From NCBI GenBank assembly GCA_037446255.1, contig JBBIIY010000002.1, positions 69,630 to 133,629 on the forward strand: DNA of 64,000 bases. The letters run 5' to 3'. The stretch is from Coprothermobacterota bacterium. Its GTDB lineage: Bacteria; Coprothermobacterota; HKB111. The notes beneath the pieces were generated by a model. That model did no database searches and was not told the DNA's origin. It saw nothing but the letters and a program-made list of their open reading frames with translations. Position numbers and translations under genes: made by a program. This document shows positions 6,048 to 39,365 of the stretch, piece after piece (position 1 is the first letter of the stretch; the number at the start of each line of letters is the position of its first letter).

Positions 6048-6192
6048 AACTCTTTGGGGTTAGGTGTAATTCCTTACCGGCGGTAAAAGCCCGCGAGCCA
6101 ATTATTGGTTGAACCGATGTGATTTCGGTGCCGACGGTTAAAGTCCGGATGGGAAAAGGGTCAAGCATATACATTCATGCCTTTTCCCCCTT
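6048..6192 (+). ncRNA. FMN riboswitch (RFN element) in the ribD leader
   Basis: Conserved RFN core: AGGTGtAATTCC...ACCGGCGGTAaAAGCCCGCGAGC...GGTGCCGACGGTtAAAGTCCGGATGGgAaAAGG. Followed by a GGGAAAAGGG...CCTTTTCCCCC helix next to the ribD ATG. Confidence 0.85.
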
Positions 6193-6200
6193 GAACAAAT

Positions 6201-7328
6201 ATGAACATTGACAATTATTATATGAAAAAAGCTATAAACCTGGCAAAATACGGTAAGGGAAGGGTAAGTCCAAATCCTCTGGTTGGTGCTTTAGTTATAA
6301 AAAATAATGAAATCATTGGAAGAGGATATCATCATAAAGCAGGAGAACCTCATGCCGAAGTCCTGGCTTTGAAAGAAGCTGGTTCAACTGCAAAAGGAGC
6401 AACTTTAGTAGTAAATTTAGAACCCTGCTGTCATTATGCTAAAACACCACCATGTACTAAAGTGATAATTGAATCAGGTATCATAAAAGTCGTTTCAGGA
6501 ATGGAAGATCCCAACCCACTAGTTTCGGGCAAAGGTTTTGCTGAATTACGAAACGCTGGGATAGAAGTTAAAACCGATGTCCTTAAAAAGCAATGTACCA
6601 AGCTTAATGAAGTATTTATAAAATACATTACCTCAAAAAAACCTTTTGTAACTTTAAAGGGTGCAATAAGCCTTGATGGAAAGGTTTCCTCTGCAACTGG
6701 TGAATCTAAATGGATAAGTAATGAAAAATCAAGAAAGATAACTCATAAACTTAGAAGTTTACACGATGCCATTTTAGTTGGAGTTGATACTATTATTAAA
6801 GACAACCCTCAGTTAACCTGCAGGCTGGATAAAAATAGTAAAAATCCAATTAGAATAATTCTGGATAGCACTTTAAGGATTCCCCTTTCCAGCCAGGTAA
6901 TACAATTATCCAGAAAATCATCATCACCAACTATTATTGTCACTACTGAACAATCTACACCAGATAAAATAAAAATTATGGAAAAGGAAGGAGTACAGGT
7001 ATTAGTTACCAGAAGTAATTCCGATTTACAAATTGACCTTAATAATTTGTTAATGATCCTCGGCGAACAAAATATTACCAGTATATTAATTGAAGGTGGT
7101 CCAACAGTAAATGCCAGCTTTCTTCAGGCAGGTATTGTAGATAAACTCATTTTATTTATTGCTCCTATTTTAATAGGCGGTAAAACTACTCCTTCTTTGA
7201 TTGGAGGAACTGGTATTAAAAAACTTGCAGATGCTATTAACCTTACAGATTTTACAATCAGGAAAATTGATAACAATTTTCTTTTTGAAGGTTATATAAG
7301 AAAACAAAAATTATGTTTACAGGACTAA
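6201..7328 (+). CDS. ribD: Bifunctional diaminohydroxyphosphoribosylaminopyrimidine deaminase / 5-amino-6-(5-phosphoribosylamino)uracil reductase
   Basis: 375 aa; CMP/dCMP deaminase zinc motif HAEV...LEPCCHYAKTPPC; C-terminal RibD reductase domain; first gene after the FMN riboswitch. Confidence 0.9.
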   Translation: MNIDNYYMKKAINLAKYGKGRVSPNPLVGALVIKNNEIIGRGYHHKAGEPHAEVLALKEAGSTAKGATLVVNLEPCCHYAKTPPCTKVIIESGIIKVVSGMEDPNPLVSGKGFAELRNAGIEVKTDVLKKQCTKLNEVFIKYITSKKPFVTLKGAISLDGKVSSATGESKWISNEKSRKITHKLRSLHDAILVGVDTIIKDNPQLTCRLDKNSKNPIRIILDSTLRIPLSSQVIQLSRKSSSPTIIVTTEQSTPDKIKIMEKEGVQVLVTRSNSDLQIDLNNLLMILGEQNITSILIEGGPTVNASFLQAGIVDKLILFIAPILIGGKTTPSLIGGTGIKKLADAINLTDFTIRKIDNNFLFEGYIRKQKLCLQD

Positions 7329-7960
7329 TTGAAGAACTTGGTACAGTAAAAAATATCCAGTTTGTTAACCAGGGTTCAAAAATAACTTTTTTGGCTTCAT
7401 TGTCCGAATTTCTGAAAGTGGGCGATAGCGTTTCAGTCAACGGGGTCTGTCTAACAGTTACCCATTGTACCCAAAATATTTTTACAGTTGAGGTTATGGG
7501 TGAAACCTTATCCAGAACAAACCTGGTATTATTAACTCCAAATCAAAAAGTAAATCTTGAAAGAGCTTTATTATTAAAGGATAGAATAGCAGGACACCTG
7601 GTATCAGGACATGTAGATGAGATAGGTACGATTATTAAAAAAATGAGCACTGGCTTGTCAATGGTAATAGAAATCAGTGCTTCAGGAAACCTCTTAAGCA
7701 TGGTGGTCAGTAAAGGGTCAATAACTGTTGATGGGATAAGCCTAACTGTAGTTGAAGTAAAGGATTCAAGCTTTTCAGTTCACCTGATTTCTCATACTCT
7801 GGAAAATACGACCCTGGGTTTTAAGGGTGTTGGTTCAAAAGTAAACCTGGAAAGTGACATTCTGGCGAAATATGTAAATAAATTGTCAGGCTTTCACAGA
7901 ATTAGTAGTGATAACTATAAAACTATTACCGAAGAATTTCTCAAGGAAAATGGGTTTTGA
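7313..7960 (+). CDS. ribE: Riboflavin synthase (alpha subunit)
   Basis: 215 aa; N-terminal MFTGLIEELG; duplicated lumazine-binding repeats (SVNGVCLTV / ITVDGISLTV); overlaps the ribD stop. Confidence 0.9.
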   Translation: MFTGLIEELGTVKNIQFVNQGSKITFLASLSEFLKVGDSVSVNGVCLTVTHCTQNIFTVEVMGETLSRTNLVLLTPNQKVNLERALLLKDRIAGHLVSGHVDEIGTIIKKMSTGLSMVIEISASGNLLSMVVSKGSITVDGISLTVVEVKDSSFSVHLISHTLENTTLGFKGVGSKVNLESDILAKYVNKLSGFHRISSDNYKTITEEFLKENGF

Positions 7961-7994
7961 TAATTTCAAAACGGAGGTTAATATATATTAATTT

Positions 7995-9197
7995 ATGAGT
8001 ATTATTTTCAATTCAATACCAGAAGTTCTTGATGATTTAAGTCAAGGTAAAATGATAATCGTGGTGGATGATGAACATCGTGAAAATGAAGGCGATTTGA
8101 TAATGGTAGCAGAATTAGTGACCCCAGAAGCTATAAATTTTATGGCAACTTATGGTAAAGGGCTAATTTGTGTGCCACTGTCTGAAACCCGACTCAAAGA
8201 ATTAGACCTTCCAATGATGGTACCTGGGGGAAATTATATATGCGATACTGCCTTCACCATTTCAGTAGATGCAATAAATACTACCACCGGTATTTCAGCT
8301 TTTGAGCGTGCTCAAACCGTTAAAATTCTTACAGATCCAAAATCTAAAAGCGAAGATTTCAAAAAACCAGGCCACATTTTTCCTTTAAAAGCTAAAAAGG
8401 GAGGTGTACTTAAAAGACCCGGACACACAGAAGCGGCTGTTGATTTAGCTTCTTTAGCTGGTCTTTATCCTGCAGGAGTTATCTGTGAAATTATGAACGA
8501 TGATGGGACCATGTCCCGATTACCACAACTCCTTGAATTTTCCAAAAAGCATAGTTTAAAAATAATTACCATTGCAGAATTAATTAAATTTAGATTTAAG
8601 CAGGAAAAATTGGTAACTAAAATAACCACTGCTAATTTACCGACAAAGTATGGAACATTTAAATTATTGACCTATGAAGATGACCTGGAAAATAATTATC
8701 ATATCGCCCTCCAAAAAGGAAATTTCAAGCCTGACGAACCCATCCTAGTAAGAATCCACTCAGAATGTTTAACTGGAGATGTATTTGGTTCAATAAGATG
8801 TGATTGTGGAGAGCAGCTTTCAGCTGCCCTAACCATGATTGAAAAAAATCAAAATGGTTTGCTTCTTTATATGAGGCAGGAAGGCAGAGGAATTGGTCTC
8901 ATGAATAAAATAAAAGCTTATAAACTTCAGGATGAGGGTAAGGATACCGTAGAAGCAAACCTTGCTCTGGGTTTTTCAGCTGACTTAAGGGACTATGGGT
9001 TTGGTGCCCAAATACTAAAAGATTTAGGGATTAATAAAGTCAGGCTGATAACTAATAATCCTCAAAAAATTTCGGACTTAAATGAATATGGGATTGAAGT
9101 CGTAGAAAGAATACCTCTATCCGTTTGTCCTCAACCTGCAAATTTAAAATATTTAAAGACTAAAAAAGAAAAATTAGGTCATTTTTTAGATTTATAA
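7995..9197 (+). CDS. ribBA: Bifunctional 3,4-dihydroxy-2-butanone-4-phosphate synthase / GTP cyclohydrolase II
   Basis: 400 aa; DHBP synthase motif [11 protein letters not shown]; GTP cyclohydrolase II CDCG zinc motif and RQEGRGIGL. Confidence 0.9.
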
Positions 9198-9224
9198 GAT
9201 TTACACTTAAAGGAGGAAACAACA

Positions 9225-9692
9225 ATGAGTAAAGTATTTGAAGGAAATCTGTTAGGAGAAGGTTTAAAATTTGCGATAGTAGTCAGCAGGTTCAATGAGT
9301 TCATAACTTCTAAATTATTAGATGGGGCTAAGGACTGTTTAGTAAGACATGGAGTAAAAGAAAGCGATATTGATATTTTCTGGACACCTGGTTCATATGA
9401 AATACCCTTGATTGCCAAAGAAATTGCCAGAAGAAAAAAACACCAAGCTATTATTTGTCTTGGTACAGTTATTAGAGGTAGTACTCCTCATTTTGAGTAT
9501 GTGGCTAATGAAGCTGCCAAAGGAATTGCACAAGTTAATCTGGAAATGGGGATACCTGCTATTTTCGGGATTATCACTGCTGATAATTTAGAACAAGCCA
9601 TAGAGAGGGCAGGAACAAAAGCTGGCAATAAAGGATGGAGTTCAGCTTTAAATGCTATTGAAATGGTAAATCTTATTAAAACTCTGGATTGA
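9225..9692 (+). CDS. ribH: 6,7-dimethyl-8-ribityllumazine synthase
   Basis: 155 aa; typical N-terminus ([15 protein letters not shown]); good SD AAAGGAGG upstream. Confidence 0.9.
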
Positions 9693-10180
9693 AAGTTATA
9701 GTTGTTTTTGGTCAGCATAAAACGGGTAAAACTACTGTAGTAGAGTCTCTTATCAGAGGGCTGTCCGATAATGGTTTTTCGGTAGCTACCATTAAAGATA
9801 TTCACTCACCTGACTTTACGCCAGACACTCAGGGTACGGATACTTTTAGACATATTTCCGCAGGAGCTAAGATAACTGTGGGTTTAGGTCTAAATAAGAC
9901 CGCTATTTTCACTCCCCGGAGAATTAAAATAGATAAGTTATTGGAATTTATTGATTGCGATTACTTGATTATTGAAGGGAATTTACCTGTTAAAGGAGTA
10001 AAAATTTTTTGTGCCCATTCTCCAGAAGAATTACCCTCAACAGATCCAGCTGTAATTGCTATATCTGGATTGGTTTCTAATTTAAATACTGATTCTTCTA
10101 AAATCCCTATCCTCCATCCAATATTACAAAGAAGTGAATTGGTCAATCTGGTTTTAAAAAATAGTAAAGAAATAAAATAA
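9689..10180 (+). CDS. MobB-like P-loop NTPase (molybdopterin-guanine dinucleotide biosynthesis protein B family), TTG start overlapping the ribH stop
   Basis: 163 aa; Walker [10 protein letters not shown]; MobB-like IKDIHSPDF and LIIEGN motifs. Confidence 0.6.
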
Positions 10181-20124: not shown

Positions 20125-20154
20125 AATTAAACCATCCTTAATAAGTATGTAAAA

Positions 20155-20183
20155 ATCTTATAATATTCATCATTAAATGTCAA
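20155..20183 (-). promoter_or_regulatory. Putative sigma70 promoter for hisS-aspS (-35 TTGACA 20183..20178, 17-nt spacer, -10 TAAGAT 20160..20155 on the minus strand)
   Basis: Hexamers read on the minus strand; the leader of about 25 nt ends in an AAGGATGG SD. Confidence 0.45.
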
Positions 20184-20255
20184 CCTTGTTCTATATTACC
20201 TGATTATTAATTTAGTTTAAAGGAAAAGAGCATTACATAAATACTTATTTGTTTA

Positions 20256-21839
20256 TCAGGAAAATAACTCCTGACGGGCCATCGCAGGAGCGATTGTTCC
20301 CAAAGAAAGTAGTTTATTATGAAAATCTTTCAAATTAAATTTTTCACCTTTTTTAATTTTATAGTCATTTACTAAACTGATAATCTCCCGCTTTCCGGTA
20401 AGATAAGAAAGAGGCTGTGCGGGATTATAAGTATATCTTTTAACTTCGGCTTCAGCCTCACTCCTTTCCAGATAAGCTTGTTCTATAAGAAAATTAATAC
20501 CTTCTTCAACTGTCATGCTCTGAGTGTGTAATTTAATATCAATAATTACCCGGGCGGCTCTCCAGAGTTGGTCTTTAAAGCGAATTAAACGAAAAACCGG
20601 GTCTGAAAGGTAACCCATATTGTCCATCAACTCCTCGCAGTAAAAAGCCCAACCTTCACTAAAAAGAGGTGAGTAAGATACTTTTCTAATCAAAGACTCA
20701 TTTGCACCGGAGGAAGATATCTGTAAATGATGTCCTGGGTAAGCTTCGTGCACTGCAGTAATAGGTATACTTTTTCGATAGTGGGTTTTCAATCTTTTAT
20801 CATCAGTGGGAGTTACCCAAAATCTTCCAGTTTGATTTTTCTGCAATAGAGGAGGTGAAACATAACCTACATAGGGAAAAATTGTTCGTGCAAACAGAGG
20901 GGTTTCTTCAATAATTAAACTCTCACTAAAAGGAAAGTCAACCAGATCTTTGTCCAGAACAAACTTCCTCACCCTGGAGGTCTCTTCTCTATACTCATTT
21001 AATAGGCTATCGGTTGAGGGGAAGTCATCTCTTAATTTCTCAAATATTTCCTGTGGAGAAAGTCCCGGCTCAAAAGAGTTACATAATCGCTCTAACTGAA
21101 CCTTGGTTTCTTTAAGCACCATTTCCCCCCAGGATAAAAGTTCTTCAGGGGTATAATAGATAAAATGGTCCTCTAACAATATCTTTCTAAACATCTCCTT
21201 TCCTACTGCGAAATCATCTTTAGTGGTTGGCAGTGTCTCCAAATAAGATAAAAAATTCCGTAGGGATTCACTTGCTTTTTCTATTAATCTATCTACCTCT
21301 AACCTCTGGTCATATTTTTCAAAGAGAGGAGGGATAACGAATTTTAAAAACACTAATCCACTTTGACCAATCTCCTGAGCAATTTTTATGAATGTTGCCG
21401 GTGGATCTACAAGGTTCATTTTTCCCTCACTTAAAACCCTGTTAATCTCTACCAGTCGATTCTTTATGTTTTTCAATCTTTCTTCTTTTGGCAAATAATC
21501 CCTGGCAATCAACAAATATAAACCATATAAAAAAGAATATATGTAAATTACTGGCAGTTTATTGGGTAATTTAAAATCTACAAGATTTCTTAATTTGGTG
21601 TTTAAGAAAGAATTAAATATTTTATAATCTACTCTTTCACTGATAGATAATTCTTCTATTTTAATTTCCTTAAGTTTATCCTGATAATCTTCAAGAAATG
21701 AGATTTGAGAAGCGATACTAACTTTATCATACCGAGCTAAAAGATGGTCATAATGATGATTACCTTGCTGAGTTGATAAAACAGGGTTATAGTAAAAATA
21801 ATTTTCTAATCCCTCTTCAATTATTTTTTCCAGTTTCAT
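20256..21839 (-). CDS. DUF885 family protein with HExxxH-like motif (HEAYPGHH); putative zinc-dependent hydrolase
   Basis: 527 aa; DUF885-like layout; last gene of an apparent four-gene minus-strand operon. Confidence 0.6.
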   Translation of the reverse strand: MKLEKIIEEGLENYFYYNPVLSTQQGNHHYDHLLARYDKVSIASQISFLEDYQDKLKEIKIEELSISERVDYKIFNSFLNTKLRNLVDFKLPNKLPVIYIYSFLYGLYLLIARDYLPKEERLKNIKNRLVEINRVLSEGKMNLVDPPATFIKIAQEIGQSGLVFLKFVIPPLFEKYDQRLEVDRLIEKASESLRNFLSYLETLPTTKDDFAVGKEMFRKILLEDHFIYYTPEELLSWGEMVLKETKVQLERLCNSFEPGLSPQEIFEKLRDDFPSTDSLLNEYREETSRVRKFVLDKDLVDFPFSESLIIEETPLFARTIFPYVGYVSPPLLQKNQTGRFWVTPTDDKRLKTHYRKSIPITAVHEAYPGHHLQISSSGANESLIRKVSYSPLFSEGWAFYCEELMDNMGYLSDPVFRLIRFKDQLWRAARVIIDIKLHTQSMTVEEGINFLIEQAYLERSEAEAEVKRYTYNPAQPLSYLTGKREIISLVNDYKIKKGEKFNLKDFHNKLLSLGTIAPAMARQELFS

Positions 21840-21848
21840 ATCATGTAT

Positions 21849-22616
21849 TTATAATGCTCCATTAAATAAATCTTCCTCCGGGGTAAGTGATATTTCACTC
21901 ATTCCAACTTCGCTATCTTCCCAGGTTAGATTTTTGACTATAGAAACGGGAATTGCTTCTGTGGATTGACCGATTACTAATTCTGTGGCGGAAGCAATTT
22001 CATCAATAATAGCGGTGTTTTTGACTCTTAATTCTTTTCCATAAAGATCCCCTGTATGCCGATAATCTCTAAAAGGAAAAATACCCGAAAAGCCGATTGC
22101 TAAATCCACCTGACCTCTTCTGAAGGGTCGACTATAAGTATCGGTAATAATTACCGCTATTCTTTTATTAATTAATTTTTGTAAGCCTATTTTAATTAGT
22201 TTAGAAGATTCATCAGGATTTACCGGCAATAAAGAGTAAAGAGTATCGCCAGGTACATTAGATCTGTCTGCGCCTGCATTTAAACATACATTACCTTGAA
22301 TATTTCTAACAATCAGCCCTTCCGGTGTTGCTTTAACCACTTCAACAGTATCTGATAAAACCAACTCAATCAGTCTTGGATCACGTAAAGTTGCCTCACC
22401 TAATTCCAGAGCTTTTTTAGAAGGAATAATATTTTCCAGGTCATATACCCTTCCTTCAGCTTTAGACACTATCTTTTGGGTTACCACTATAATGTCGCCA
22501 TCTTCAATATTTACACTTTCTCTTTTACATGCCTCAACTATTATAGCTGGTATATCATCTCCTTCTTTAATTATAGGTATAGTTTGTAACCCGGTGATTG
22601 TTAATGTTTTTGCCAT
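21849..22616 (-). CDS. CofE-like protein (coenzyme F420-0:L-glutamate ligase / gamma-glutamyl ligase family)
   Basis: 255 aa; N-terminus TITGLQTIPIIKEGDDI...GDIIVVTQKIVSKAEGR characteristic of the CofE/FbiB N-domain fold. Confidence 0.6.
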   Translation of the reverse strand: MAKTLTITGLQTIPIIKEGDDIPAIIVEACKRESVNIEDGDIIVVTQKIVSKAEGRVYDLENIIPSKKALELGEATLRDPRLIELVLSDTVEVVKATPEGLIVRNIQGNVCLNAGADRSNVPGDTLYSLLPVNPDESSKLIKIGLQKLINKRIAVIITDTYSRPFRRGQVDLAIGFSGIFPFRDYRHTGDLYGKELRVKNTAIIDEIASATELVIGQSTEAIPVSIVKNLTWEDSEVGMSEISLTPEEDLFNGAL

Positions 22617-22643
22617 TCTCGCCTCCGTTTTATTTCCTGATTA

Positions 22644-23792
22644 TTATAACTTCTTACCAAAAATAAAGAACTTCTTATAAGGTACTCCCCCAGCATTTTT
22701 AATTACATTATTTATTCCCCAGTTATCTTCAAGAGTCATTGAGGCTTCTCCCCAAGTATAACCTTTTTTACTAACTTCTAAAGCAGTTTTGGTATATAAT
22801 AGCGCACTTAAACCCCGGTTTCTATATTCTTCCAATACACCAAGAATAAATACTCTCATTGATTTCATTTTTCTAAACTTTAATCTATAAAGCAATTTGG
22901 CCAGGTTCCAGGGAGAAATATTACCATTAAAATCGCTTATAAATTCATTTATATTGGGTAAAGTTACTGATACTCCCACTGGCTGTCCATCAATATAAGC
23001 GAATAAGATTAAGTTCGGGTCAATAATACTCTTAAGTTTTGAGCCTACATATTTTACATCATCGTCAGTAATTGGAGTAAAGCCCCAGTTATTTTTCCAG
23101 CATTCATTATAAAGATATTTGATTATTTGCAATTCCTCGTCAAATTTCTTCATATTCACATTTCTAATTTCTACCTGAAATCTCTTTTCCAGGTTATTAG
23201 TTACACTCTTTAACCAGCCTTCTTTTTCAGTAAAAGCTTTTATTTCTACTTGCCAGGCATACCAGGTTTTAACTATTTCAAATTCGCAGTTAACTAATAA
23301 ATCTGGATAATATGGAGGATTATATCCCGTTAGTATAACCGGCGCTGAAAAACCTTCTGCTAAAACTCCTATTTCATCGCTCATGGTTGGACTTATTGGC
23401 CCTATTACATCGGTCATTCCTTTTTCTTTTATCCAGTTACAAGAATTCTCTAAAAGAAGTTTACTCGCATCTAAATCATTAACGCATTCAAAAAAACCAA
23501 AATATCCAGTTTTAGACTGATGATAATCCACATATTGAAAATCTATATGAGCAGAGACCCTACCAATTATTTTACCTTTAAACTCAACCATGAATAAATG
23601 CATTTGACCATGCTTAAAAAAGGGATTTAAAGAAGGAGAAAAACTTTGTGATAATTCTACCCTAAGAGGGTGTATATAATTCCTGTCACCTTTATATATT
23701 TCATTTTTGTAAGTGAAATCAATAAATTTATTTAAATTATTTTTATCATTTACTGGAAAGTCAATAATTCTATAATTATTCATATATTTCAC
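22644..23792 (-). CDS. Tandem GNAT-fold acyltransferase-like protein
   Basis: 382 aa; C-terminal half carries the acyl-CoA binding signature (EEYRNRGLSALLY); the N-terminal half looks like a second, degenerate GNAT-like domain. Confidence 0.5.
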   Translation of the reverse strand: MKYMNNYRIIDFPVNDKNNLNKFIDFTYKNEIYKGDRNYIHPLRVELSQSFSPSLNPFFKHGQMHLFMVEFKGKIIGRVSAHIDFQYVDYHQSKTGYFGFFECVNDLDASKLLLENSCNWIKEKGMTDVIGPISPTMSDEIGVLAEGFSAPVILTGYNPPYYPDLLVNCEFEIVKTWYAWQVEIKAFTEKEGWLKSVTNNLEKRFQVEIRNVNMKKFDEELQIIKYLYNECWKNNWGFTPITDDDVKYVGSKLKSIIDPNLILFAYIDGQPVGVSVTLPNINEFISDFNGNISPWNLAKLLYRLKFRKMKSMRVFILGVLEEYRNRGLSALLYTKTALEVSKKGYTWGEASMTLEDNWGINNVIKNAGGVPYKKFFIFGKKL

Positions 23793-23823
23793 CTTATAGT
23801 ACTTAGGATATAATCAATCAAAA

Positions 23824-25284
23824 TCACTTTATTCTATTTATATTTCTAATAAACAAAACATAGAATTGTACCATCTTAACCAGATCTACAATCGGTATCC
23901 TTTCATTAATGCCATGAACACGCTTCATATCCTCCAAAGAAATAATAAGCGGGCGAAACCGATAAATATTATCACTAACAGATAAAAAATGTCTTGAGTC
24001 TGTAGCTCCAAGCACTAAATTGGGAATGACGGGTACTCCAGGAAATAATTGATTTATCGTTTTAGATAAAATTGCATATCCTTCATTATCTATACCTGAT
24101 ATTTTTGAAGGATCCCAGCTTTGACCATATTTTTCAACTTTAATGCCTGTATTCTTAACAATTTTTCTTGAATGATTTAACACTCCTTCAACAGTATTTC
24201 CAGGGATAATGCGAAAGTTTACTATTGCTTTAGCAGTGGTTGGTAAAATATTATCTTTAACTCCTGCTTCCGCCATAGTAACCGCAGTTGTGGTTCTAAT
24301 CATTGCTTTAATAAGAGGCGTAGAAACATAAGAACTCAAAAGTGGCCAAAACAGCCATAGGTTAGACATAACAATCTTATACGAGTAGGAAATATAAGGT
24401 ATTAAACTTTCCAGAAATAATTTAGTCACCCTACTAAGTGTCGGTGAGCATTGCTTATTTTCTAAATTGACAATTGCCTGGCTTAACATTCCGATACTGG
24501 AATTTTTGGTAGGCATTGATGAATGACCTCCACTACTTTCTGAAGTTAATTCAATACTAATATAACCTTTTTCTGCAATACCTACTGTGGCTAATGGTTT
24601 CTTAATAAATTTGTTAAAACCACTAACAATTGCTCCACCCTCATCAAGAACATAATCAATTTTAATATTCTTTTCTTTGAGCATTTGAGATATCTGGTAA
24701 GCTCCCTCCCTTCCACCTATTTCCTCATCATGACCAAACGCCAGATATATAGTATCATCAGGTTCAAACCCCTTTTTTAACAGGCACTCTACAGCATATA
24801 AAGTAGAGATAACACCAGCTTTATCGTCTATTGCTCCTCTACCCCAGATGAATCCATCCGCAACTGTTCCCTCAAAAGGGTTGTAAATCCACTCTCCTTC
24901 GGTGATACCCTCAACCGGAACTACATCATAATGCCCCATCAGTAATATAGTCTTATTTTTTACTTTACCTTCCCAGGTATAAAATAGGCTATAGTTGTTT
25001 ATTATTTCTTTTTTCAACTTGCTATGCACCAGGGGGAAAGTTAATTCAAGGTAATTAAGAAAGTTATGAAAGTGTGTTTTATTAACTTCAAAGTAATCTT
25101 TTTGAGATATAGTAGTGTATTGAAGAGATTGGCTAAATATCAAAGTAATATCGTCAACATCAAGGTTTTCTATCTCACAATCATATTTAACATCCTTTTT
25201 GAAATTGAGCTTGTTAGTGCGAAACATAAGGATAGCAACTAAAATAAAAATTATTGTTAATATAAAATACAAACCTATAATCAT
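23824..25284 (-). CDS. M20 family metallopeptidase (ArgE/DapE/carboxypeptidase G2-like) with N-terminal membrane anchor
   Basis: 486 aa; metal-binding motifs GHYDVVPV, DDKAG, HDEEIGG; N-terminal hydrophobic helix. Confidence 0.8.
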   Translation of the reverse strand: MIIGLYFILTIIFILVAILMFRTNKLNFKKDVKYDCEIENLDVDDITLIFSQSLQYTTISQKDYFEVNKTHFHNFLNYLELTFPLVHSKLKKEIINNYSLFYTWEGKVKNKTILLMGHYDVVPVEGITEGEWIYNPFEGTVADGFIWGRGAIDDKAGVISTLYAVECLLKKGFEPDDTIYLAFGHDEEIGGREGAYQISQMLKEKNIKIDYVLDEGGAIVSGFNKFIKKPLATVGIAEKGYISIELTSESSGGHSSMPTKNSSIGMLSQAIVNLENKQCSPTLSRVTKLFLESLIPYISYSYKIVMSNLWLFWPLLSSYVSTPLIKAMIRTTTAVTMAEAGVKDNILPTTAKAIVNFRIIPGNTVEGVLNHSRKIVKNTGIKVEKYGQSWDPSKISGIDNEGYAILSKTINQLFPGVPVIPNLVLGATDSRHFLSVSDNIYRFRPLIISLEDMKRVHGINERIPIVDLVKMVQFYVLFIRNINRIK

Positions 25285-25403
25285 AATTTATCTCCTTAAG
25301 CTATAAATAAGATTAACATTCTATATTATAAAATGTATTTATACATTTTGTTCTTATAAAGAATAGTGTTAAAATTTAAATAATAATTGGATAGGGAGGA
25401 ATT

Positions 25404-27842
25404 ATGGTTAAGTTAGTTTCTACACAAGTAACCTGTAAATGCTTATCTGAAGAATTTACTTTTACTACCACCAATGATGTTTCACCCCTGGAAGTAACTA
25501 TAGGACAGGACAGGGCTATAAAAGCTATTGAGGTGGCTTTGAATATGAAAACCAAGGGATTCAACCTGTATATTGCTGGTCCTCGCGGAGTAGGTAAAAC
25601 TTCAGCTATTAAATCTCTCTTAACTAAAAGGGCACCCAAAGAACCGGTTCCTCCTGATATTGTTTATGTTTTCAACTTTAAATTCCCCGAATCTCCCAAG
25701 CCCTTAATATTGAAAGCGGGTTTAGGGAAAATTCTTTCTCAAGAAATGGTCAATTTTACTAATGAACTTAAAAACGATATTTCCCAGATTTTTGAAAGTG
25801 ATGATTACGAAAAAAGAAAATCAAAAATTATTAATAAAACCCAATCTGAAAAAGAAAAATTTATTAACCATGTCCAAAATCTGGCTAAAGATGAAGGTTT
25901 CACTCTCCAAATAACACCTCAGGGTATTTTTACCATGCCTATGAAAAATGGCACTCCACTCTCCCCCGAAGAATATCAATCACTATCCGAGGAAGATAAA
26001 AAAGCCCTGGAAACAAAAAACAAAAAAGTCATAGAAGAAATAAACCGTACTCTGCGTAATATAAAAAAAATTGAAAGAGATGCTCTGATTGAGTTGAACA
26101 AACTGGATATTGAATTAGTAAAGTTTCTCTTAACCAATTTGAGTGCAGAAATTAAATCGTTATTCAATAATGAACCAAATATTCTAAGTTATATAAATGA
26201 GGTAGAAGAAGAAATTTTGTCTAAAATCAACGAATTAAAAACTCCCAAAGAAACTTCATCTCTAACTCCTTCACCCTTTCCCCTTATAGTAACTGACCCC
26301 TTTGCAAAATACCAGATTAATGTAATTGTTGACAATTCAAACACTGAAGGAGCACCAATTGTTTTTGAAAATAATCCTACTTATTCCAACCTGATTGGTA
26401 GAATCGAGTTTAAATCACAGTATGGTGTCACAACTACCAGTTTTGACCTTATAAAATCGGGATCATTATTAAAAGCTAATGGTGGTTACCTCGTTATTCA
26501 AATATTGGATATATTAAAAAATCCTTATGCCTGGGAAGCCTTAAAAAAATCTTTACAGAATAATGAGGTCAAAATTGAAAATATCGGTGATCAGTTGAGA
26601 ATGGATCCGGTAGTAACACTTAAGCCAGAATCCATCCCGTTGATTAACTGTGAGGTTATTCTCATAGGAAGCTTGCAACACTATTATCTTCTTTATAATT
26701 ACGACGAGGATTTCAGAAAACTTTTCAAAATAAGGGCAGATTTTGATACAGAAATGGATAGAAACTATAACTCAATTTCTAAGTATGCGTCATTTATCAG
26801 TTCCAGGGTTAAAGAAGAAGGTTTAAATCCTTTTAACAGAGAAGCTGTAGGAACGGTTATTGACTATGGTACAAGATTAGCTGGCAACCAGAAGAAACTT
26901 TCTACCAGGTTTAGCGATATATCGGACCTGATCTCTGAAGCTAATTACTGGTCAATGCAGGAGAACAAACAGATAGTTGAACAAGCACATGTCTTTAAAG
27001 CTCTCCAGGAAAAAATATATCGTTCTAATTTAATTGAAGAAAAAATTATGGAACTAATCAAAGAAGGTACAATACTACTTGACATTTCAGGAAGTAAAAT
27101 TGGCCAAGTTAATGGCCTTTCCATTTTAGGCCTGTCAGACTATTCTTTTGGAAAACCTTCCAGAATTACCGCCTCGGTATCTTTAGGAAACCAGGGAATT
27201 ATAAACTTAGAGAGAGAAGTTGCGATGAGTGGTCCTATCCATAGCAAAGGAGTTCTAATTCTTACGGGCTTTCTCAGGGATAAATTTGCCCGCACCCACC
27301 CCTTATCTCTTAATGCCAGTTTGGTATTTGAGCAACTTTATGAGGAAATAGAGGGGGATAGCGCTTCCAGTGCTGAACTATATGCTTTATTATCTGCCAT
27401 TGCATCTGTTCCCTTAAAGCAAAACCTGGCTGTTACCGGTTCAGTAAATCAAAAAGGTGAGGTCCAACCTGTAGGGGGTGTAACCAGAAAAATAGAGGGC
27501 TTTTACGATATATGTAAAGTAAAAGGATTAACCGGTGATCAGGGAGTTATTATCCCTATTCAGAACATAAACAACCTGATACTTAGAGAAGATGTGGTTA
27601 AAGCTATTGAAGAAAACAGATTCCATCTTTATGCTATTGAGAGCATAGATGAAGGAATAGAACTCCTTACTTCAATGAAAGCAGGTGTGAAAGACGATAA
27701 GGGAAATTATGAAGAATGTTCTTTTTATCACATACTTGAAAAACAATTATATCAAATGGCATTAAGCCTGAAAGAGTATGATAAAGAAAAGAAAAGCCGG
27801 GTTAATACCTCCAGAAAGCTCCAACGCCCCCATAAGCCATAA
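25404..27842 (+). CDS. Lon-like ATP-dependent protease (AAA_32 / COG1067-type, with a long helical insertion in the ATPase domain)
   Basis: 812 aa; Walker A GPRGVGKTS. C-terminal Lon S16 proteolytic domain with Ser (GDSASSAELYALLSAI) and Lys (VGGVTRKIEGF) dyad context. Roughly 150-aa K/E-rich helical insert. Confidence 0.75.
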   Translation: MVKLVSTQVTCKCLSEEFTFTTTNDVSPLEVTIGQDRAIKAIEVALNMKTKGFNLYIAGPRGVGKTSAIKSLLTKRAPKEPVPPDIVYVFNFKFPESPKPLILKAGLGKILSQEMVNFTNELKNDISQIFESDDYEKRKSKIINKTQSEKEKFINHVQNLAKDEGFTLQITPQGIFTMPMKNGTPLSPEEYQSLSEEDKKALETKNKKVIEEINRTLRNIKKIERDALIELNKLDIELVKFLLTNLSAEIKSLFNNEPNILSYINEVEEEILSKINELKTPKETSSLTPSPFPLIVTDPFAKYQINVIVDNSNTEGAPIVFENNPTYSNLIGRIEFKSQYGVTTTSFDLIKSGSLLKANGGYLVIQILDILKNPYAWEALKKSLQNNEVKIENIGDQLRMDPVVTLKPESIPLINCEVILIGSLQHYYLLYNYDEDFRKLFKIRADFDTEMDRNYNSISKYASFISSRVKEEGLNPFNREAVGTVIDYGTRLAGNQKKLSTRFSDISDLISEANYWSMQENKQIVEQAHVFKALQEKIYRSNLIEEKIMELIKEGTILLDISGSKIGQVNGLSILGLSDYSFGKPSRITASVSLGNQGIINLEREVAMSGPIHSKGVLILTGFLRDKFARTHPLSLNASLVFEQLYEEIEGDSASSAELYALLSAIASVPLKQNLAVTGSVNQKGEVQPVGGVTRKIEGFYDICKVKGLTGDQGVIIPIQNINNLILREDVVKAIEENRFHLYAIESIDEGIELLTSMKAGVKDDKGNYEECSFYHILEKQLYQMALSLKEYDKEKKSRVNTSRKLQRPHKP

Positions 27843-28965
27843 GTTTTTTACCTGCATCACTTCCTACAACTTCCAATTTTGCTCCAAAACTGAGTACTAA
27901 GGGTGGTAGAAAGCTCTTAGATGAGCCTTCAGTAAAATCAGTTGAATTGCAATTAGAACAGGGTTTCTCACCTGCAATTTCATGGTAATTACATTTATGG
28001 CATTTCTTTAGGTTTTGATTGAAAACTCTGGAAATTATTACCTTATCAACCCTGCCAGTCTGTATTGATTTTAAAGTGGAATCAAATCCAACACAGGCAA
28101 GAATTCCCGAAGATGACCGTTCTAAAAGATTTTCCACCAAAGTTTTTTCTCTAGCTCTTTCATAGCTCCAAAATACCGAAAGTGCTTGAACCATTATATC
28201 CTTAGGATTGGTATCTACAGGAATGGGTATGTTTCCTACAAACATACCCATCTGTTCTTTACTGAAAAGTTTAAAGTATTTCTCATAAATAACTTCTGAC
28301 CCGCTTAAAACAAATTCTCTGATAGAATGTTCTTTGGCTATAGAATTGAAATGGCTGATAGTATTTTTAAAAAATCGTAATTGATTGGCTTCAATCCTAT
28401 CTTCATAAGCCTCTACCCTATCACCTCCACCTATACTTCCCCGGATAGATCCCTCTCTTGGAGAGGAAGGGGGCATAATTGTTTGTTTCCTCCAATCAGA
28501 AGTATCCAGATCCAGGTTAAAAGATTTAATCTTTTCTATTTTGTTGAGATATACTTTGTATATTTCTACCATATTAGAATCAACCATAAATACACCAAAA
28601 GGTCTATATTCCTCAATTATCCAGATAAGCTGGCCTAAATTTGGTTTACCAAAATATATTTCATTCTCCACATTAACTTGAGATGGCAATAATTCTGTAA
28701 TTTCCTTACTTAAAAATAGAATTATAGATTTATGTTTAAACAAAGTGCCTTCAATCAAAGATTTTGCTTCATCTTCAATAGTTTCCAGATAATCTTTTTT
28801 AAAAGGCTCTATTTTCTCTTTCAGGTCTTTAAAAGCAGTTTTTAACCAGATTAAAGAAGGAGCTCTACCGCCATCGCTGGAAGATGGGTCAATATTTAAA
28901 TAAATGCTTAGAACATCGTTATATTCAGATTTTAAGAGTTCTTCAATCTTTATTGCATCAATCAT
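27802..28965 (-). CDS. eRF1/Pelota-like (baeRF-type) protein with GGG in place of GGQ and a CxxC...CxxC zinc ribbon
   Basis: 387 aa; central region resembles eRF1 domain 2 (FGVFMVDSN...; GSIRGSIGGGDRVEAYEDRIEANQLRF versus eRF1 GRGGQSALRFARLR); C-terminal region resembles eRF1/Pelota domain 3 (ILACVGFDSTLKSIQTGRVDKVII); zinc ribbon CHKCN...CSNC. Confidence 0.5.
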   Translation of the reverse strand: MIDAIKIEELLKSEYNDVLSIYLNIDPSSSDGGRAPSLIWLKTAFKDLKEKIEPFKKDYLETIEDEAKSLIEGTLFKHKSIILFLSKEITELLPSQVNVENEIYFGKPNLGQLIWIIEEYRPFGVFMVDSNMVEIYKVYLNKIEKIKSFNLDLDTSDWRKQTIMPPSSPREGSIRGSIGGGDRVEAYEDRIEANQLRFFKNTISHFNSIAKEHSIREFVLSGSEVIYEKYFKLFSKEQMGMFVGNIPIPVDTNPKDIMVQALSVFWSYERAREKTLVENLLERSSSGILACVGFDSTLKSIQTGRVDKVIISRVFNQNLKKCHKCNYHEIAGEKPCSNCNSTDFTEGSSKSFLPPLVLSFGAKLEVVGSDAGKKLMAYGGVGAFWRY

Positions 28966-32805: not shown

Positions 32806-33612
32806 ATGAAATTTTATATATCTGTGGACTGGGAAGGAATATCAGGCGTTGTATCCTGGGAGATTCAGGATGACATTAAATCACCTTCCTACATGGAAAC
32901 TCGTCATAGAATGACCAAAGAGGTTAATGCTGTAGTGGAAGGCTTATTTGATGGTGGAGCAACTTATGTGTTAGTCAATGATTCCCATGGAAATATGACT
33001 AATCTTTTAATAGATGACCTGGATCCTCGAGTAGAGTTGATAATGGGAAGCCCAAAGCCTTTTTCTATGGTTGAAGGGTTAACCTCTGATTTTAATGGGG
33101 CATTGTTGCTTGGTTACCACCCTAGCGCTGGAACTTATCGTGGAATCATGGACCACACTTATTCAGGTTCATCCATCTACGAAATTAGAGTTAATGGAGA
33201 GCCTTTTTCGGAAGGTGATATAAATGGTAGTTTTGCTGGCTCCCTGGGTGTTCCAGTTGTTCTGGTATCTGGAGATAAATCAGTAGTTGAATCCTTGATG
33301 CTCAGGTTTAAGGGTTCCCTTGGTGTTATAAGTAAGATCGCCTTGGGAAGATCCACCGCTCGTTTGTACCATCCCACAAAAGTTTATGAGGAATTAAAGA
33401 AAAAAGCCAGGGAAGCTGCCAAATACACAACTAACTTAAAACCATATTGCCCGGACTTTCCCATAACTATGGAAATTGATTTTACAACTACTCAAAAGAC
33501 TGATGTAGCCTCTATTCTTCCCGAAGCGGAAAGAATTGGACCAAGAACGGTAAAAATAATTTCCCCGGATATGCAAACCGCCTTTAGAAGATTGCTGGTG
33601 CTACTAAGATAA
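32806..33612 (+). CDS. dppA: D-aminopeptidase DppA (peptidase M55 family)
   Basis: 268 aa; N-terminus MKFYISVDWEGISGV characteristic of M55; GGAGG RBS upstream. Confidence 0.75.
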   Translation: MKFYISVDWEGISGVVSWEIQDDIKSPSYMETRHRMTKEVNAVVEGLFDGGATYVLVNDSHGNMTNLLIDDLDPRVELIMGSPKPFSMVEGLTSDFNGALLLGYHPSAGTYRGIMDHTYSGSSIYEIRVNGEPFSEGDINGSFAGSLGVPVVLVSGDKSVVESLMLRFKGSLGVISKIALGRSTARLYHPTKVYEELKKKAREAAKYTTNLKPYCPDFPITMEIDFTTTQKTDVASILPEAERIGPRTVKIISPDMQTAFRRLLVLLR

Positions 33613-38363: not shown

Positions 38364-38451
38364 TGGTGCCGGGGAAGGGAATCGAACCCCCACGAGGTTT
38401 ACCCTCAGCGGATTTTAAGTCCGCTGCGTCTGCCTGTTCCGCCACCCCGGC
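38364..38451 (-). tRNA. tRNA-Leu (anticodon UAA), CCA encoded
   Basis: Cloverleaf read on the minus strand: GCCGGGGTGGCGGAAC...GGACUUAAAAUCCGC...long variable arm...GGGGGTTCGATTCCCTTCCCCGGCACCA; 88 nt. Confidence 0.85.
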
Positions 38452-38460
38452 ATTGTCTTC

Positions 38461-38537
38461 TGGAGGCGAGGGCCGGATTTGAACCGGCGGATAGCGATTT
38501 TGCAGACCGCCGCCTTAGGCCACTTGGCTACCTCGCC
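38461..38537 (-). tRNA. tRNA-Cys (anticodon GCA), CCA encoded
   Basis: GGCGAGG acceptor; anticodon loop CUGCAAA; T-arm GCCGGTTCAAATCCGGC; 77 nt. Confidence 0.85.
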
Positions 38538-38651
38538 ATAAATACTTTATAATTATATAATAAAGATGCAATATTATTACCAACCTTAAGCAATTGATTC
38601 GCAAAAATAAGGGTAAAATAGATTACCTTACTAAATTTAAAGGGGTAAATA

Positions 38652-39047
38652 ATGAAAAGAGTGGAATTTACCATTAATTCTAAAACAAATATTGAATCAA
38701 TTGATATAACTGCAAAAATTAACAATTTCTTGAGAAATAATGATTTTTCCGCAAATGTGTGTAATATTTTTATACCTCACACCACTGCTGGAGTTTCCAT
38801 CAATGAAAACACTGACCCTGAGGTTATGAATGATTTTTTAAATAAAATCAATCAGTTAATCCCGGTAAATGATCAATACCACCATTTAGAAGGCAATTCA
38901 CCGGCTCATATAAAGACAGTGCTCTGTGGTAACAGCCTGATGGTACCAGTTAAAGAAAACAGATTATTATTAGGAACATGGCAGGGTATATTCCTGCTGG
39001 AATTTGATGGTCCGCGAGAAAGAAAAATCGTTTTAACTTTTTTATAA
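38652..39047 (+). CDS. yjbQ: YjbQ/UPF0047 family protein (secondary thiamine-phosphate synthase-like)
   Basis: 131 aa; conserved IPHTTAG, GNSPAHIK and LGTWQGIFLLEFDGPR blocks. Confidence 0.8.
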   Translation: MKRVEFTINSKTNIESIDITAKINNFLRNNDFSANVCNIFIPHTTAGVSINENTDPEVMNDFLNKINQLIPVNDQYHHLEGNSPAHIKTVLCGNSLMVPVKENRLLLGTWQGIFLLEFDGPRERKIVLTFL

Positions 39048-39162
39048 CTAGTCTGGAAAAATTATACACAACTCACTTAGTCTCTCTGGTTTTTTTGTAT
39101 TAAATTTATTAATTATAAGATATACCTTGTTATCTGACACATTACCTTGATAAGCTAAAGAG

Positions 39163-39238
39163 ATGGAGCGGGAAACGGGATTCGAACCCGCGACCCTCAG
39201 CTTGGGAAGCTGATGCTCTACCGGCTGAGCTACTCCCG
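39163..39238 (-). tRNA. tRNA-Gly (anticodon CCC), CCA encoded
   Basis: GCGGGAGTAGCTCAGCCGGTAGAGC...loop UUCCCAA...GGGTTCGAATCCCGTTTCCCGCTCCA; 76 nt. Confidence 0.85.
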
Positions 39239-39247
39239 CATAAGAGG

Positions 39248-39323
39248 ATGGTGCCGAGAGACGGAATTGAACCGCCGACGCAGGGATTTTCAGTCCCTCG
39301 CTCTACCAACTGAGCTATCTCGG
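39248..39323 (-). tRNA. tRNA-Phe (anticodon GAA), CCA encoded
   Basis: GCCGAGATAGCTCAGTTGGTAGAGC...loop CUGAAAA...GGTTCAATTCCGTCTCTCGGCACCA; 76 nt. Confidence 0.85.
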
Positions 39324-39365
39324 CACAACAGATGTATTATATCATTAATAGGTTTAAAATTTGAT

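Follow-up and report, generated by a model that had tools for sequence, protein, structure and literature searches.

Some described enzyme pairs set the C-terminal tail of a substrate by a ligase and a hydrolase acting on it, such as folylpolyglutamate synthase (FPGS) and gamma-glutamyl hydrolase (GGH), or tubulin tyrosine ligase and MATCAP. The M20 peptidase family includes the glutamate carboxypeptidase CPG2 and p-aminobenzoyl-glutamate hydrolase. The ligase CofE adds glutamate to a carboxylate in a GTP-dependent reaction that proceeds through an acyl phosphate (PMC8498797). Genes for F420 and, in Bacteroidota, for sphingolipids frequently lie dispersed over the genome, and the clustering of sphingolipid genes is not obligatory across all phyla (PMC11334938). 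For DUF885 proteins, no member with a demonstrated activity was found, and the term is absent from the titles and abstracts of the 17 papers found to mention it.

The window analysed here, a stretch of 64 kb, comes from a relative of 'Candidatus Psychracetigena formicireducens' (Candidatus Lithacetigenota; NCBI name: candidate division WS2, hereafter WS2). The organism is uncultured, and its habitat is serpentinite springs. The window contains a cluster that is real and restricted to this phylum. Its conserved core is a tandem GNAT of the bCerS/YghO family followed immediately by an archaeal-type CofE, and a DUF885 gene is usually next. The combination of these three families with an M20 peptidase matches no known pathway, as had been stated in a sequence-only reading of this DNA. 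The affiliation of the GNAT, the archaeal type of the CofE, the metallocarboxypeptidase-like fold of the DUF885 protein and the pairing of DUF885 with a CofE-like gene on an unrelated contig are new in comparison with that reading. In its working principle only, the locus may be likened to FPGS/GGH and to tubulin tyrosine ligase/MATCAP, as a residue-adding NTP-dependent ligase is encoded beside a potentially residue-removing metallocarboxypeptidase-like enzyme. Unlike in FPGS/GGH, the opposing activities are putative here, and the protein families are unrelated to that pair.

Layout and boundaries of the four-gene block

Four ORFs occupy positions 20256-25284 of the minus strand. In ascending coordinates, they encode the DUF885 protein (20256-21839, 527 aa), the CofE-family ligase (21849-22616, 255 aa), the tandem GNAT (22644-23792, 382 aa with the GTG start as listed) and the M20 peptidase (23824-25284, 486 aa). 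The ORF list agrees with the sequence-only reading that the genes are co-directional and separated by only 9, 27 and 31 nt. Since the relatives of the GNAT are all 379 aa in length, its true start is probably the ATG at 23783, and the gap between the GNAT and M20 genes would then be 40 nt.

An AAGGAG ribosome-binding site is located 8 nt ahead of the M20 ATG. The M20 gene and a divergent LonC-like gene are separated by 119 nt (25285-25403), and the promoter of the four-gene unit presumably lies in this region; the sigma-70-like matches on the minus strand (25372-25345 and 25307-25280) are weak, with 9 of 12 positions matching. At the other end, a gap of 131 nt on the minus strand (20125-20255) precedes hisS, and a promoter-like TTGACA-17-TAAGAT is found ahead of hisS at 20183-20155. 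The terminator scan revealed no terminator-like sites in the intergenic gaps, including the 131-nt one, while two weak matches on the coding strand are within the DUF885 and M20 coding sequences. The total of seven terminator-like sites against 3.1 expected from shuffling is a modest excess.

The tight gaps had been taken to make co-transcription almost certain. The four genes are probably co-transcribed; however, the gap size carries little weight, since gaps of 9-31 nt are usual in this compact genome. About 94% of the genome is coding, the same-strand gaps in the window have a median of 9 nt, and 68% of them do not exceed 31 nt. The next genes on the same strand, hisS, aspS, dnaX and recR, overlap or are separated by 2-4 nt.

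The main alternative to a joint function is that the four genes are unrelated neighbours packed together by the compact genome, each with the ordinary job of its family. CofE would extend the F420 tail, the GNAT would be a ceramide synthase, and M20 and DUF885 would be general peptidases of a host taken as a peptide- and amino-acid-using anaerobe. The median gap accords with this explanation, as does the run of hisS, aspS, dnaX, recR, tmk and holB, which is equally tight and conserved. We consider it only slightly less likely than a joint function.

The tandem GNAT and the CofE-family ligase

The only Pfam match of the GNAT is PF00583, and it is below the threshold (19.9 against 20.7 bits). 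The AlphaFold (AF2) model of the protein (pLDDT 92.9) matches the solved tandem GNATs 7q3a, 2wpw, 5kf1 and MshD with a Foldseek E of 1e-14, so the label 'tandem GNAT' is correct. The other three families named in the sequence-only reading were recovered by profile search (PF05960, PF01996 and PF01546). The CoA-type motif RxxGxS/A of the GNAT is represented by RNRGLS at residue 324. Its family is that of the bacterial ceramide synthases (bCerS/CerS, E. coli YghO), and an N-acyltransferase role is predicted for the protein. The search returned 90 homologues, and in the genome collection, examination of 600 stretches that fit the pattern confirmed at least 593 matches. The similarity with the Reyranella protein P0046 extends over 99% of the length (32% identity, E 5e-63); the level of identity with this protein and with the Sphingomonas and E. 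coli YghO members is 31-33% over 92-99% of the length. The family, the tandem GNAT fold and the CoA-type motif are shared with YghO and with bCerS/CerS (Caulobacter CC_1154), the Caulobacter link being made via the Reyranella, Sphingomonas and E. coli members and not via the CC_1154 sequence.

An Spt-like and/or CerR-like gene is located near the GNAT-family member in 54 of the 80 loci. The Reyranella, E. coli (yghO) and Sphingomonas homologues are found in aasR-cerR-acpR-spt clusters, which in the case of P0046 read, by domain, AMP-binding / Epimerase / ACP / Aminotran_1_2. These clusters of acyl-ACP synthetase, CerR-like epimerase, ACP and Spt agree with the Caulobacter gene set (PMC11324152). 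Unlike these loci, the flanks of the GNAT in five WS2 lineages contain no spt, cerR, acp or acyl-ACP synthetase genes, and a glutamate ligase is the constant neighbour; no Spt-like or CerR-like genes were detected by tblastn and Pfam, either within the window or around any other WS2 locus. In the tree of the bCerS family, the WS2 clade is nested among the spt/cerR-linked members and its branch is not unusually long, which favours four unrelated neighbours.

The CofE-family ORF has a full-length PF01996 domain (227 bits, E 2.5e-67). Its score of 249.7 bits with the F420 model TIGR01916 is over the equivalog cut-off of 180.65, while the score with the archaeal equivalog NF009809 (237.8) is under 274. 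The folate-type CofE-like ligase (TIGR04132) was rejected as an assignment, at 71.2 bits against a cut-off of 350. Together with PF01996, the matches to the A. fulgidus CofE structures 7ULD, 2G9I and 2PHN (E about 1e-45) bear out the CofE fold. The identity with A. fulgidus CofE (AF2256) is roughly 40%, and the protein retains the motifs NAGxDxSN and IITDT. Unlike AF2256, the protein of the window is bacterial, though its closest relatives are archaeal: the nearest ones outside WS2 show 53-58% identity, and all three inspected contigs are archaeal. The protein is thus of the archaeal type and, judging by its family, is predicted to be a GTP-dependent gamma-glutamyl ligase.

In the alignment, D117, D159 and T160 are invariant. 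Gln217 aligns with Glu210 of 7ULD_A, which we take to be a Mn ligand; in contrast to 7ULD_A, Gln occupies this position throughout the subfamily of the window protein, referred to here as Gln-type. All 27 loci at least 42% identical to the CofE of the window belong to this group, save two with Lys, and the nine loci with cofC neighbours have Glu-type CofE. Among its archaeal-type relatives, 103 columns show at least 90% conservation, and the protein retains 87 of them; the changes specific to its clade are conservative, with the exception of G187H. CofE shows no sign of altered specificity. This and the passing of the F420 equivalog model count against a joint function and in favour of an ordinary, conservative member of the subfamily beside unrelated genes.

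The gene context of CofE is unusual. Pfam and NCBIfam searches of the 51 ORFs of at least 120 aa tiling the 64 kb window revealed no CofC, CofD, CofG/H or F420-dependent oxidoreductase, in line with the earlier statement that CofE lies outside an F420 context. F420 genes other than CofE are likewise absent from the WS2 loci examined, and neither the publication that described the phylum nor one of its supplementary files mentions F420. Unlike in all other CofE loci examined, CofE is paired here with a GNAT and a DUF885 gene. Both core genes appear to be out of their usual context, which we count for a joint function; the lack of F420 and spt/cerR genes in the window and the WS2 loci examined speaks against each protein doing its ordinary job, although the frequent scattering of such genes (PMC11334938) can be set on the other side.

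The DUF885 and M20 hydrolases

The DUF885 protein has a full-length PF05960 domain (E 4.8e-90) and the fold of that family. Its metal motif had been read as HExxxH but is in fact HExxxxH(H), represented by HEAYPGHH (364-371) and followed by EGWAFYCEE (395-403); the site HExxxxHH...E is invariant. The fold is closest to the gluzincins that remove C-terminal residues (M32, Dcp and MATCAP). The identity with M32 metallocarboxypeptidases (Taq, Pfu and BsuCP), neurolysin, Dcp and MATCAP is only about 10%, and the M32 enzymes and related gluzincins have HExxH instead of HExxxxHH. The protein resembles M32 carboxypeptidases in fold and is a predicted metallohydrolase of the gluzincin type. It is cytoplasmic, whereas the three solved DUF885 structures are all of unannotated lipoproteins.

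The closest homologue outside the phylum, P0215 (41% identity), adjoins a PF01996 protein (L157/L158). That neighbour is not orthologous to the CofE of the window (32% identity, under the TIGR01916 cut-off), the gene order is reversed, and the locus is one of only two extra-phylum DUF885 contexts examined; however, chance does not readily explain such an adjacency, the family being so rare. An independent pairing of this kind would be unexpected for a generic peptidase. On the other hand, no ligase was found close to the DUF885 gene in the Acetothermia locus, and no DUF885-ligase fusion was found among the best 150 representatives.

In the M20 protein, the profile search identified PF01546 (E 1.1e-31) and the PF07687 dimerisation domain (E 7.4e-13). 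The di-metal motifs are all intact (HYD118, GAIDDK150, HDEE185 and DEGG214), and H432 and H457 are near the C-terminus, in the region expected for the last ligand by position, not by alignment. The two domains and the motifs are common to the PRK08262-type M20A enzymes and, more distantly, to aminoacylase-1, DapE and carboxypeptidase G2; aminoacylase-1 and DapE are its closest relatives of known structure. Among NCBIfam models, the top matches are of the PRK08262-type 'M20 family peptidase', at 434.6 against a cut-off of 825 and 430 against 503. Every NCBIfam score is under its cut-off, so that the protein falls in no named equivalog (PRK08262-type, DapE, ArgE, CPG2 and others). It is a predicted M20A metallopeptidase or amidohydrolase.

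The M20 enzyme had also been described as membrane-anchored. A single N-terminal hydrophobic helix (residues 2-21, by hydropathy) is real in the copy of the window, but in two related assemblies, L004 and L005, this segment is frameshifted by the loss of 1 nt from a T-run, and the anchor is not clearly conserved across relatives. The helix is followed by a K/R-rich stretch, and this charge pattern suggests a cytoplasm-facing tether and not an exposed domain. Further peptidases are encoded close by, an M55 peptidase at 32806-33612 in the window and an S9 peptidase in L001. Their presence is consistent with general peptidases among unrelated neighbours.

The properties of the two hydrolases also bear on the salvage or remodelling of a cofactor tail. 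F420 (or folate) from neighbouring archaea would be taken up, DUF885 and M20 would trim its oligoglutamate tail in the manner of carboxypeptidase G2 or gamma-glutamyl hydrolase on folates, and the CofE homologue would rebuild the tail intracellularly, with the GNAT uninvolved. The archaeal affinity of CofE, the lack of F420 biosynthesis genes close by, the carboxypeptidase-like fold of DUF885, the membership of CPG2 and p-aminobenzoyl-glutamate hydrolase in the M20 family and the recurring DUF885-ligase pairing all point in this direction. Nevertheless, the cluster is without a transporter, the window is without an F420-dependent enzyme, the folate-type score is far below its cut-off (about 71 bits against 350), and F420 salvage is unmentioned in the F420 review searched. 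Such salvage would also leave unexplained the GNAT, the partner conserved everywhere, and we regard it as improbable.

Distribution of the cluster and its possible function

The sequence-only reading had proposed the co-occurrence of the four genes in other genomes as a check, and the outcome bears it out only in part. All four are adjacent only in close relatives at about 80-91% protein identity (L004-L006 and L134), whereas a same-strand GNAT-CofE pair with 14-28 nt between the genes is present in each of the five lineages recovered, including the distant L001/L002, L092 and L093 of the same phylum. Across the five lineages, the level of identity is 54-87% for the GNAT and 67-91% for CofE. 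DUF885 is kept in three of the four lineages whose sequence runs beyond cofE (the L092 contig ends at cofE and was left out of this count). It directly follows CofE in the clade of the window and in the divergent L093, and is absent from the L001 lineage.

The gene upstream of the GNAT differs between lineages: it encodes M20 in the window, whereas L001 has a divergently oriented S9 peptidase gene, L093 a divergent gene for a 606-aa product of no assigned family, and L092 a gene for a type ISP restriction enzyme in the same direction. M20 is absent at the L001/L002, L092 and L093 loci and confined to the window's own clade; it is a late addition to the cluster, in one genus only. Outside the phylum, CofE, M20 and DUF885 were found within 10 kb of a GNAT-family member in none of the 80 loci, and GNAT, M20 and DUF885 were found near CofE in none of about 45. 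An operon conserved among unrelated genomes is thus not supported, the sole recurrence being the DUF885 gene with a CofE-like gene in L157/L158.

The restriction of the association to one phylum, gaps typical of the genome, the absence of DUF885 in L001, the Acetothermia locus and the lack of fusions count against a functional module. Moreover, synteny within the phylum extends just as well to hisS-aspS-dnaX-recR, the unrelated genes downstream, so the conserved adjacency of GNAT and CofE may simply reflect vertical inheritance.

Nevertheless, we tentatively propose a module in which gamma-glutamyl tails are added and trimmed and N-acylation takes place, and for which we infer a shared substrate and the reaction directions. 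It would write and trim amide bonds on a small carboxylate-bearing molecule. As is established for CofE, the homologue would convert a terminal carboxylate into an acyl phosphate at the expense of GTP and attach L-glutamate to it. DUF885, with M20 where present, would act as a carboxypeptidase or amidohydrolase, removing the terminal residue or residues and thereby setting or recycling the tail. The GNAT would acylate an amine of this molecule or of a precursor, with acyl-CoA or acyl-ACP as the donor. The substrate may be an F420-type cofactor tail or an N-acylated amino acid that mimics such a tail with its N-acyl-glutamate end. In addition to the unusual context of both core genes, this proposal draws on the GNAT-CofE adjacency in five of five lineages despite differing upstream neighbours and on the position of DUF885 beside CofE in the window clade and L093, and of P0215 beside a PF01996 protein. 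It is also consistent with the invariant site and carboxypeptidase-like fold of DUF885 and with the intact catalytic motifs of M20.

Gene block and its distribution

The four minus-strand ORFs occupy exactly the positions proposed by the sequence-only reading, and the families that it gave for three of them were borne out by profile searches. In the order of transcription, the block encodes an M20 peptidase (23824-25284, 486 aa; PF01546 and PF07687), a tandem GNAT protein (22644-23792, 382 aa, GTG start), a CofE-family protein (21849-22616, 255 aa; PF01996, E 2.5e-67) and a DUF885 protein (20256-21839, 527 aa; PF05960, E 4.8e-90). The profile match of the GNAT protein is below the threshold (19.9 vs 20.7 bits); however, its AlphaFold model (pLDDT 92.9) matches the solved tandem GNATs 7q3a, 2wpw, 5kf1 and MshD in Foldseek with E about 1e-14, which shows that the original designation was correct. 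Its start is probably the ATG at 23783, since its relatives are all 379 aa in length.

The intergenic gaps inside the block are 9, 27 and 31 nt. About 94% of the window is coding, the median gap between same-strand neighbours is 9 nt, and 68% of these gaps are 31 nt or shorter (n = 37 neighbour pairs). Spacing alone tells little about a shared function. Co-transcription of the four genes is plausible. They form the head of a 14-kb co-directional run, which continues with hisS, aspS, dnaX, recR, an R3H ATPase gene, tmk, holB and a PSP1-domain gene (end at 11144), neighbouring genes of which overlap or lie a few bases apart. The block is limited upstream by a 119-nt divergent gap, with an AAGGAG ribosome-binding site ahead of the M20 gene, and downstream by a 131-nt gap with TTGACA-17-TAAGAT ahead of hisS. 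On the coding strand, a terminator scan revealed two weak terminator-like matches, which lie inside the DUF885 and M20 genes; the gaps between the genes contain none. No regulatory RNA was found in the flanking gaps by an Rfam search. The idea of a horizontally acquired island was rejected: the GC content is 0.32-0.35, as elsewhere in the window, without compositional anomaly.

The closest homologues fall in clusters whose members are labelled 'candidate division WS2 bacterium' and 'Candidatus Psychracetigena formicireducens'; accordingly, the window is assigned to Ca. Lithacetigenota. The description of this phylum comes from hyperalkaline springs hosted in serpentinite (PMC9751293). A literature search yielded no genomic study of WS2. 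The order M20-GNAT-CofE-DUF885-hisS is kept in the closest relatives, loci L004-L006, and in the fragment L134, with roughly 80-91% protein identity; the latter was the single WS2 fragment recovered by a metagenome scan with the CofE query. In three more distant WS2 lineages, where the GNAT proteins are 54-58% and the CofE proteins 67-69% identical, the GNAT-CofE pair is kept with a 14-nt gap. The surroundings of this pair differ. Loci L001/L002 have a divergent S9 peptidase gene upstream and hisS directly after CofE, and contain neither M20 nor DUF885. L092 has a type ISP restriction enzyme gene upstream, oriented in the same direction, and its contig stops at CofE. In L093, a divergent 606-aa gene without family assignment lies upstream, and a DUF885 gene (55% identical) follows CofE after 12 nt. 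This pattern indicates that the stable unit is GNAT-CofE; DUF885 is frequent in the cluster, and M20 is confined to a single genus.

Outside WS2, the partners are separated. A genome scan for the GNAT family, built on 15 sequences, confirmed at least 593 relatives out of the 600 pattern-matching stretches examined; the 80 returned loci do not include the WS2 genomes themselves. Within 10 kb of these 80 best GNAT-family loci outside WS2, no homologue of CofE, M20 or DUF885 is encoded. The CofE loci of full length (about 45, at 35-58% identity) likewise all lack the GNAT, M20 and DUF885 partners. The sequence-only reading had made its proposal of a four-gene operon depend on co-occurrence in other genomes, and this was largely lacking. 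Its observation of the block stands; in place of a widely conserved operon, there is a phylum-restricted cluster with a core of two or three genes. Such a distribution is compatible with four unrelated neighbours performing their canonical roles, a serious if somewhat unlikely alternative: the association is confined to one phylum, and the housekeeping genes around the cluster show synteny that is just as well conserved.

The M20 protein has complete di-metal motifs, and its best matches are PRK08262-type models, all under their cut-offs. The membrane anchor noted earlier is present in the window as an N-terminal hydrophobic helix. There is no positive residue before the helix and there are five K/R after it, which suggests a cytoplasm-facing tether. 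An exposed, envelope-facing enzyme is not favoured, given this charge pattern. In L004 and L005, two independent assemblies of the closest relatives, a 1-nt deletion (a T missing from a T-run; about 1235-1290 in L004 and about 1139-1195 in L005, against 25284-25225 in the window) shifts the reading frame of the helix, with the result that gene callers begin at an internal Met (467 aa). This can be explained either by a real loss of the anchor or by a shared homopolymer error.

Archaeal-type ligase and ceramide synthase-family acyltransferase

The CofE-family protein scores 249.7 bits with TIGR01916, above the cut-off of 180.65, and the CofE of A. fulgidus aligns with it over the full length (E about 1e-45). 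A folate-type ligase was rejected (TIGR04132, 71 vs the cut-off of 350). Its nearest relatives outside WS2 are 53-58% identical. Three inspected contigs of these relatives carry TFIIB or Nop5/fibrillarin genes and are thus archaeal; one further relative is named Bathyarchaeia.

A comparison of loci L089-L133 revealed two types of CofE. Opposite Glu210 of 7ULD_A in the alignment, the loci at least 42% identical to the window protein have Gln (27) or Lys (2), and all 22 loci at 40% identity or below have Glu. The cofC gene (PF01983) adjoins nine Glu-type loci, closely related to each other, and no Gln-type locus; no F420 gene was found beside the Gln-type loci. Seven Gln-type loci have a RimK-like ATP-grasp neighbour and five a class-III aminotransferase; these may be LysX/LysJ, or the ATP-grasp genes may encode CofF, which would point to F420. 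The archaeal contig L090 encodes both types within 1.5 kb (6001-6774 and 7540-8319, 0.8 kb apart). The Gln-type CofE may be a functionally distinct subfamily. The Glu-to-Gln change was rejected as a sign of neofunctionalisation in WS2, as the nearest archaeal relatives have Gln too.

Of the 103 columns with at least 90% conservation among its 115 nearest relatives, the window CofE retains 87, and the clade-specific changes in WS2 are conservative, with the exception of G187H. Judging from this conservation, the WS2 enzyme probably shares the activity of the archaeal Gln-type enzymes; such a conservative sequence is also what unrelated neighbours would show. For the archaeal Gln-type enzymes, F420 glutamylation is assumed and, to our knowledge, has never been demonstrated. 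Profile scans of the 51 ORFs of at least 120 aa tiling the window detected no CofC, CofD, CofG/H or F420-dependent oxidoreductase, and F420 is not mentioned in the paper describing the phylum (PMC9751293) and one of its supplementary files. The label 'F420 ligase' in Lithacetigenota reflects homology to an uncharacterised Gln-type subfamily. Salvage or remodelling of cofactor tails by the cluster is an unlikely alternative, which leaves the always-present GNAT unexplained.

Relatives of the GNAT protein in many phyla are found beside genes of sphingolipid type. An alpha-oxoamine synthase (Aminotran_1_2) is present in the flanks of 49 of the 80 GNAT-family loci and an NAD-dependent epimerase in 41; both occur together in 36 loci and at least one in 54. 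A PAP2_3 protein is encoded at a distance of up to 4 kb in 12 loci. In Reyranella, the homologue P0046 (32% identity over 99%) is encoded in a cluster with the order AMP-binding, epimerase, ACP, Aminotran_1_2, metallophosphoesterase, GNAT. This agrees with the ceramide genes of Caulobacter, aasR-cerR-acpR-spt, near which the N-acyltransferase CerS (CC_1154) is encoded (PMC11324152, PMC11087976). The homologues from E. coli (YghO) and Sphingomonas, 31-33% identical to the window GNAT, are encoded in clusters of this kind too, accompanied by a second lptF/lptG pair. Gene context and homology together assign the protein to the bCerS/YghO family of bacterial ceramide synthases. On the neighbour-joining tree, the WS2 clade is nested among spt/cerR-linked members, which again is in line with mere neighbours. 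Neither the window nor the WS2 loci contain an Spt-like or CerR-like gene. Even if the genes are mere neighbours, the annotation is better given as a bCerS/YghO-family N-acyltransferase.

Two loci of the family can be described in more detail. In a non-K-12 E. coli (L164, NZ_MG591698.1, 1328-9107), yghO lies beside genes for a fatty acyl-AMP ligase, an epimerase, ACP and an Spt-like aminotransferase and the second lptF/lptG pair, a full Caulobacter-type sphingolipid gene set. A Myxococcaceae locus (L077, 10001-12278) contains tandem paralogues with 36% and 28% identity to the window GNAT. The family members P0013 and P0014, of which P0014 is named Aquimarina sediminis, similarly have longest contigs of equal length. 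A literature search found nothing connecting 'dATP pyrophosphohydrolase' with ceramide and nothing useful on YghO.

DUF885 and the possible role of the cluster

The metal motif of the DUF885 protein is HEAYPGHH...EGWAFYCEE; the family was recognised correctly, and the motif is HExxxxHH, not HExxxH. About 8,800 representatives, one per 50%-identity cluster, make up the family, and we know of no activity for it; of the 17 papers in which DUF885 is mentioned, none names it in the title or abstract. The nearest relatives outside WS2 (about 40%) belong to Dehalococcoidia, Bipolaricaulota and TA06. The contexts of two non-WS2 relatives were inspected. The closest of them, P0215 (41%), is followed by a 322-aa PF01996 protein, 32% identical to the window CofE and scoring 156 bits, below the TIGR01916 cut-off. 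In this assembly (GCA_003551905.1; L157 2821-5579, L158 2455-5213), the divergent CofE-like protein has an insertion of about 30 residues and a C-terminal hydrophobic tail, and the pair is flanked by a WD40-repeat lipoprotein gene upstream and a PAS sensor kinase gene downstream. The second context inspected belongs to an Acetothermia relative and contains no ligase gene. Chance does not easily account for DUF885 lying next to a ligase once more, with a non-orthologous partner and the reverse gene order, and this gives the best indication of a functional link. Fusions of DUF885 with a ligase were not found in the best 150 matches from 1.84 billion representatives, where the long matches are tandem DUF885 proteins, and a scan of viral contigs with DUF885 gave distant, uninformative matches only.

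The cluster is assembled from known enzyme families. It is possible, and we suggest it tentatively at less than even probability, that the conserved core acts as one module on a shared molecule. The CofE-type ligase would attach glutamate to a terminal carboxylate, the bCerS-family GNAT would N-acylate an amine on this molecule or on a precursor, and DUF885 would strip terminal residues, joined by M20 in one genus. Such cooperation would place DUF885 in a functional context for the first time, as an enzyme that trims behind a glutamate ligase, with a CofE-family ligase at work in a bacterium without a visible F420 pathway and a ceramide synthase-family acyltransferase employed outside sphingolipid synthesis.

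A more specific version of the shared-molecule reading is a long shot: the archaeal-type CofE would have been recruited in Lithacetigenota to a non-F420 substrate. The GNAT would make an N-acyl amino acid (e.g., N-acyl-glutamate), and the ligase would lengthen it with gamma-linked glutamates to an anionic lipo-oligoglutamate, with DUF885 (and M20 in one genus) as a dedicated trimming carboxypeptidase. N-acyl-glutamate is a possible substrate because its N-acylated glutamate end is the same as the tail of F420-1, which CofE extends. If true, DUF885 would gain its first function, and the product would be a glutamylated lipid or metabolite of a new class, possibly tied to life at pH 11-12. The value of the cluster lies in a testable DUF885-ligase hypothesis, the improved GNAT annotation and the Gln-type CofE subfamily.

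Other features of the window

The selenocysteine machinery encoded in the window fits the published description of the phylum. The selD gene (53612-54652, minus strand) itself encodes a selenoprotein: its ATG at 54652 has an AGGAGG ribosome-binding site, and an in-frame TGA (54619-54617) lies inside a G-U-A-A-K motif. The ORF finder gives only the portion downstream of this TGA. Near selD are selB (48387-50297), selA (50302-51663), a class-V aminotransferase gene (51664-52812) and a TusA-like gene (53030-53590); the tRNA-Sec gene is located on the plus strand at 54739-54834.

An FMN riboswitch (6046-6164, plus strand, 111 bits) precedes an operon for ribD, riboflavin synthase, ribBA and lumazine synthase (6201-10180, plus strand), which is followed by a MobB-like gene. 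An odd pairing is formed by a LonC/LonB-like AAA protease gene (25404-27842, plus strand) and an eRF1-like gene of baeRF family 5/10 (27802-28965, minus strand), which converge with a 41-nt overlap of their 3' ends. At 38364-39324 (minus strand), the tRNA pairs Leu-Cys and Gly-Phe lie on either side of an opposite-strand UPF0047 gene.
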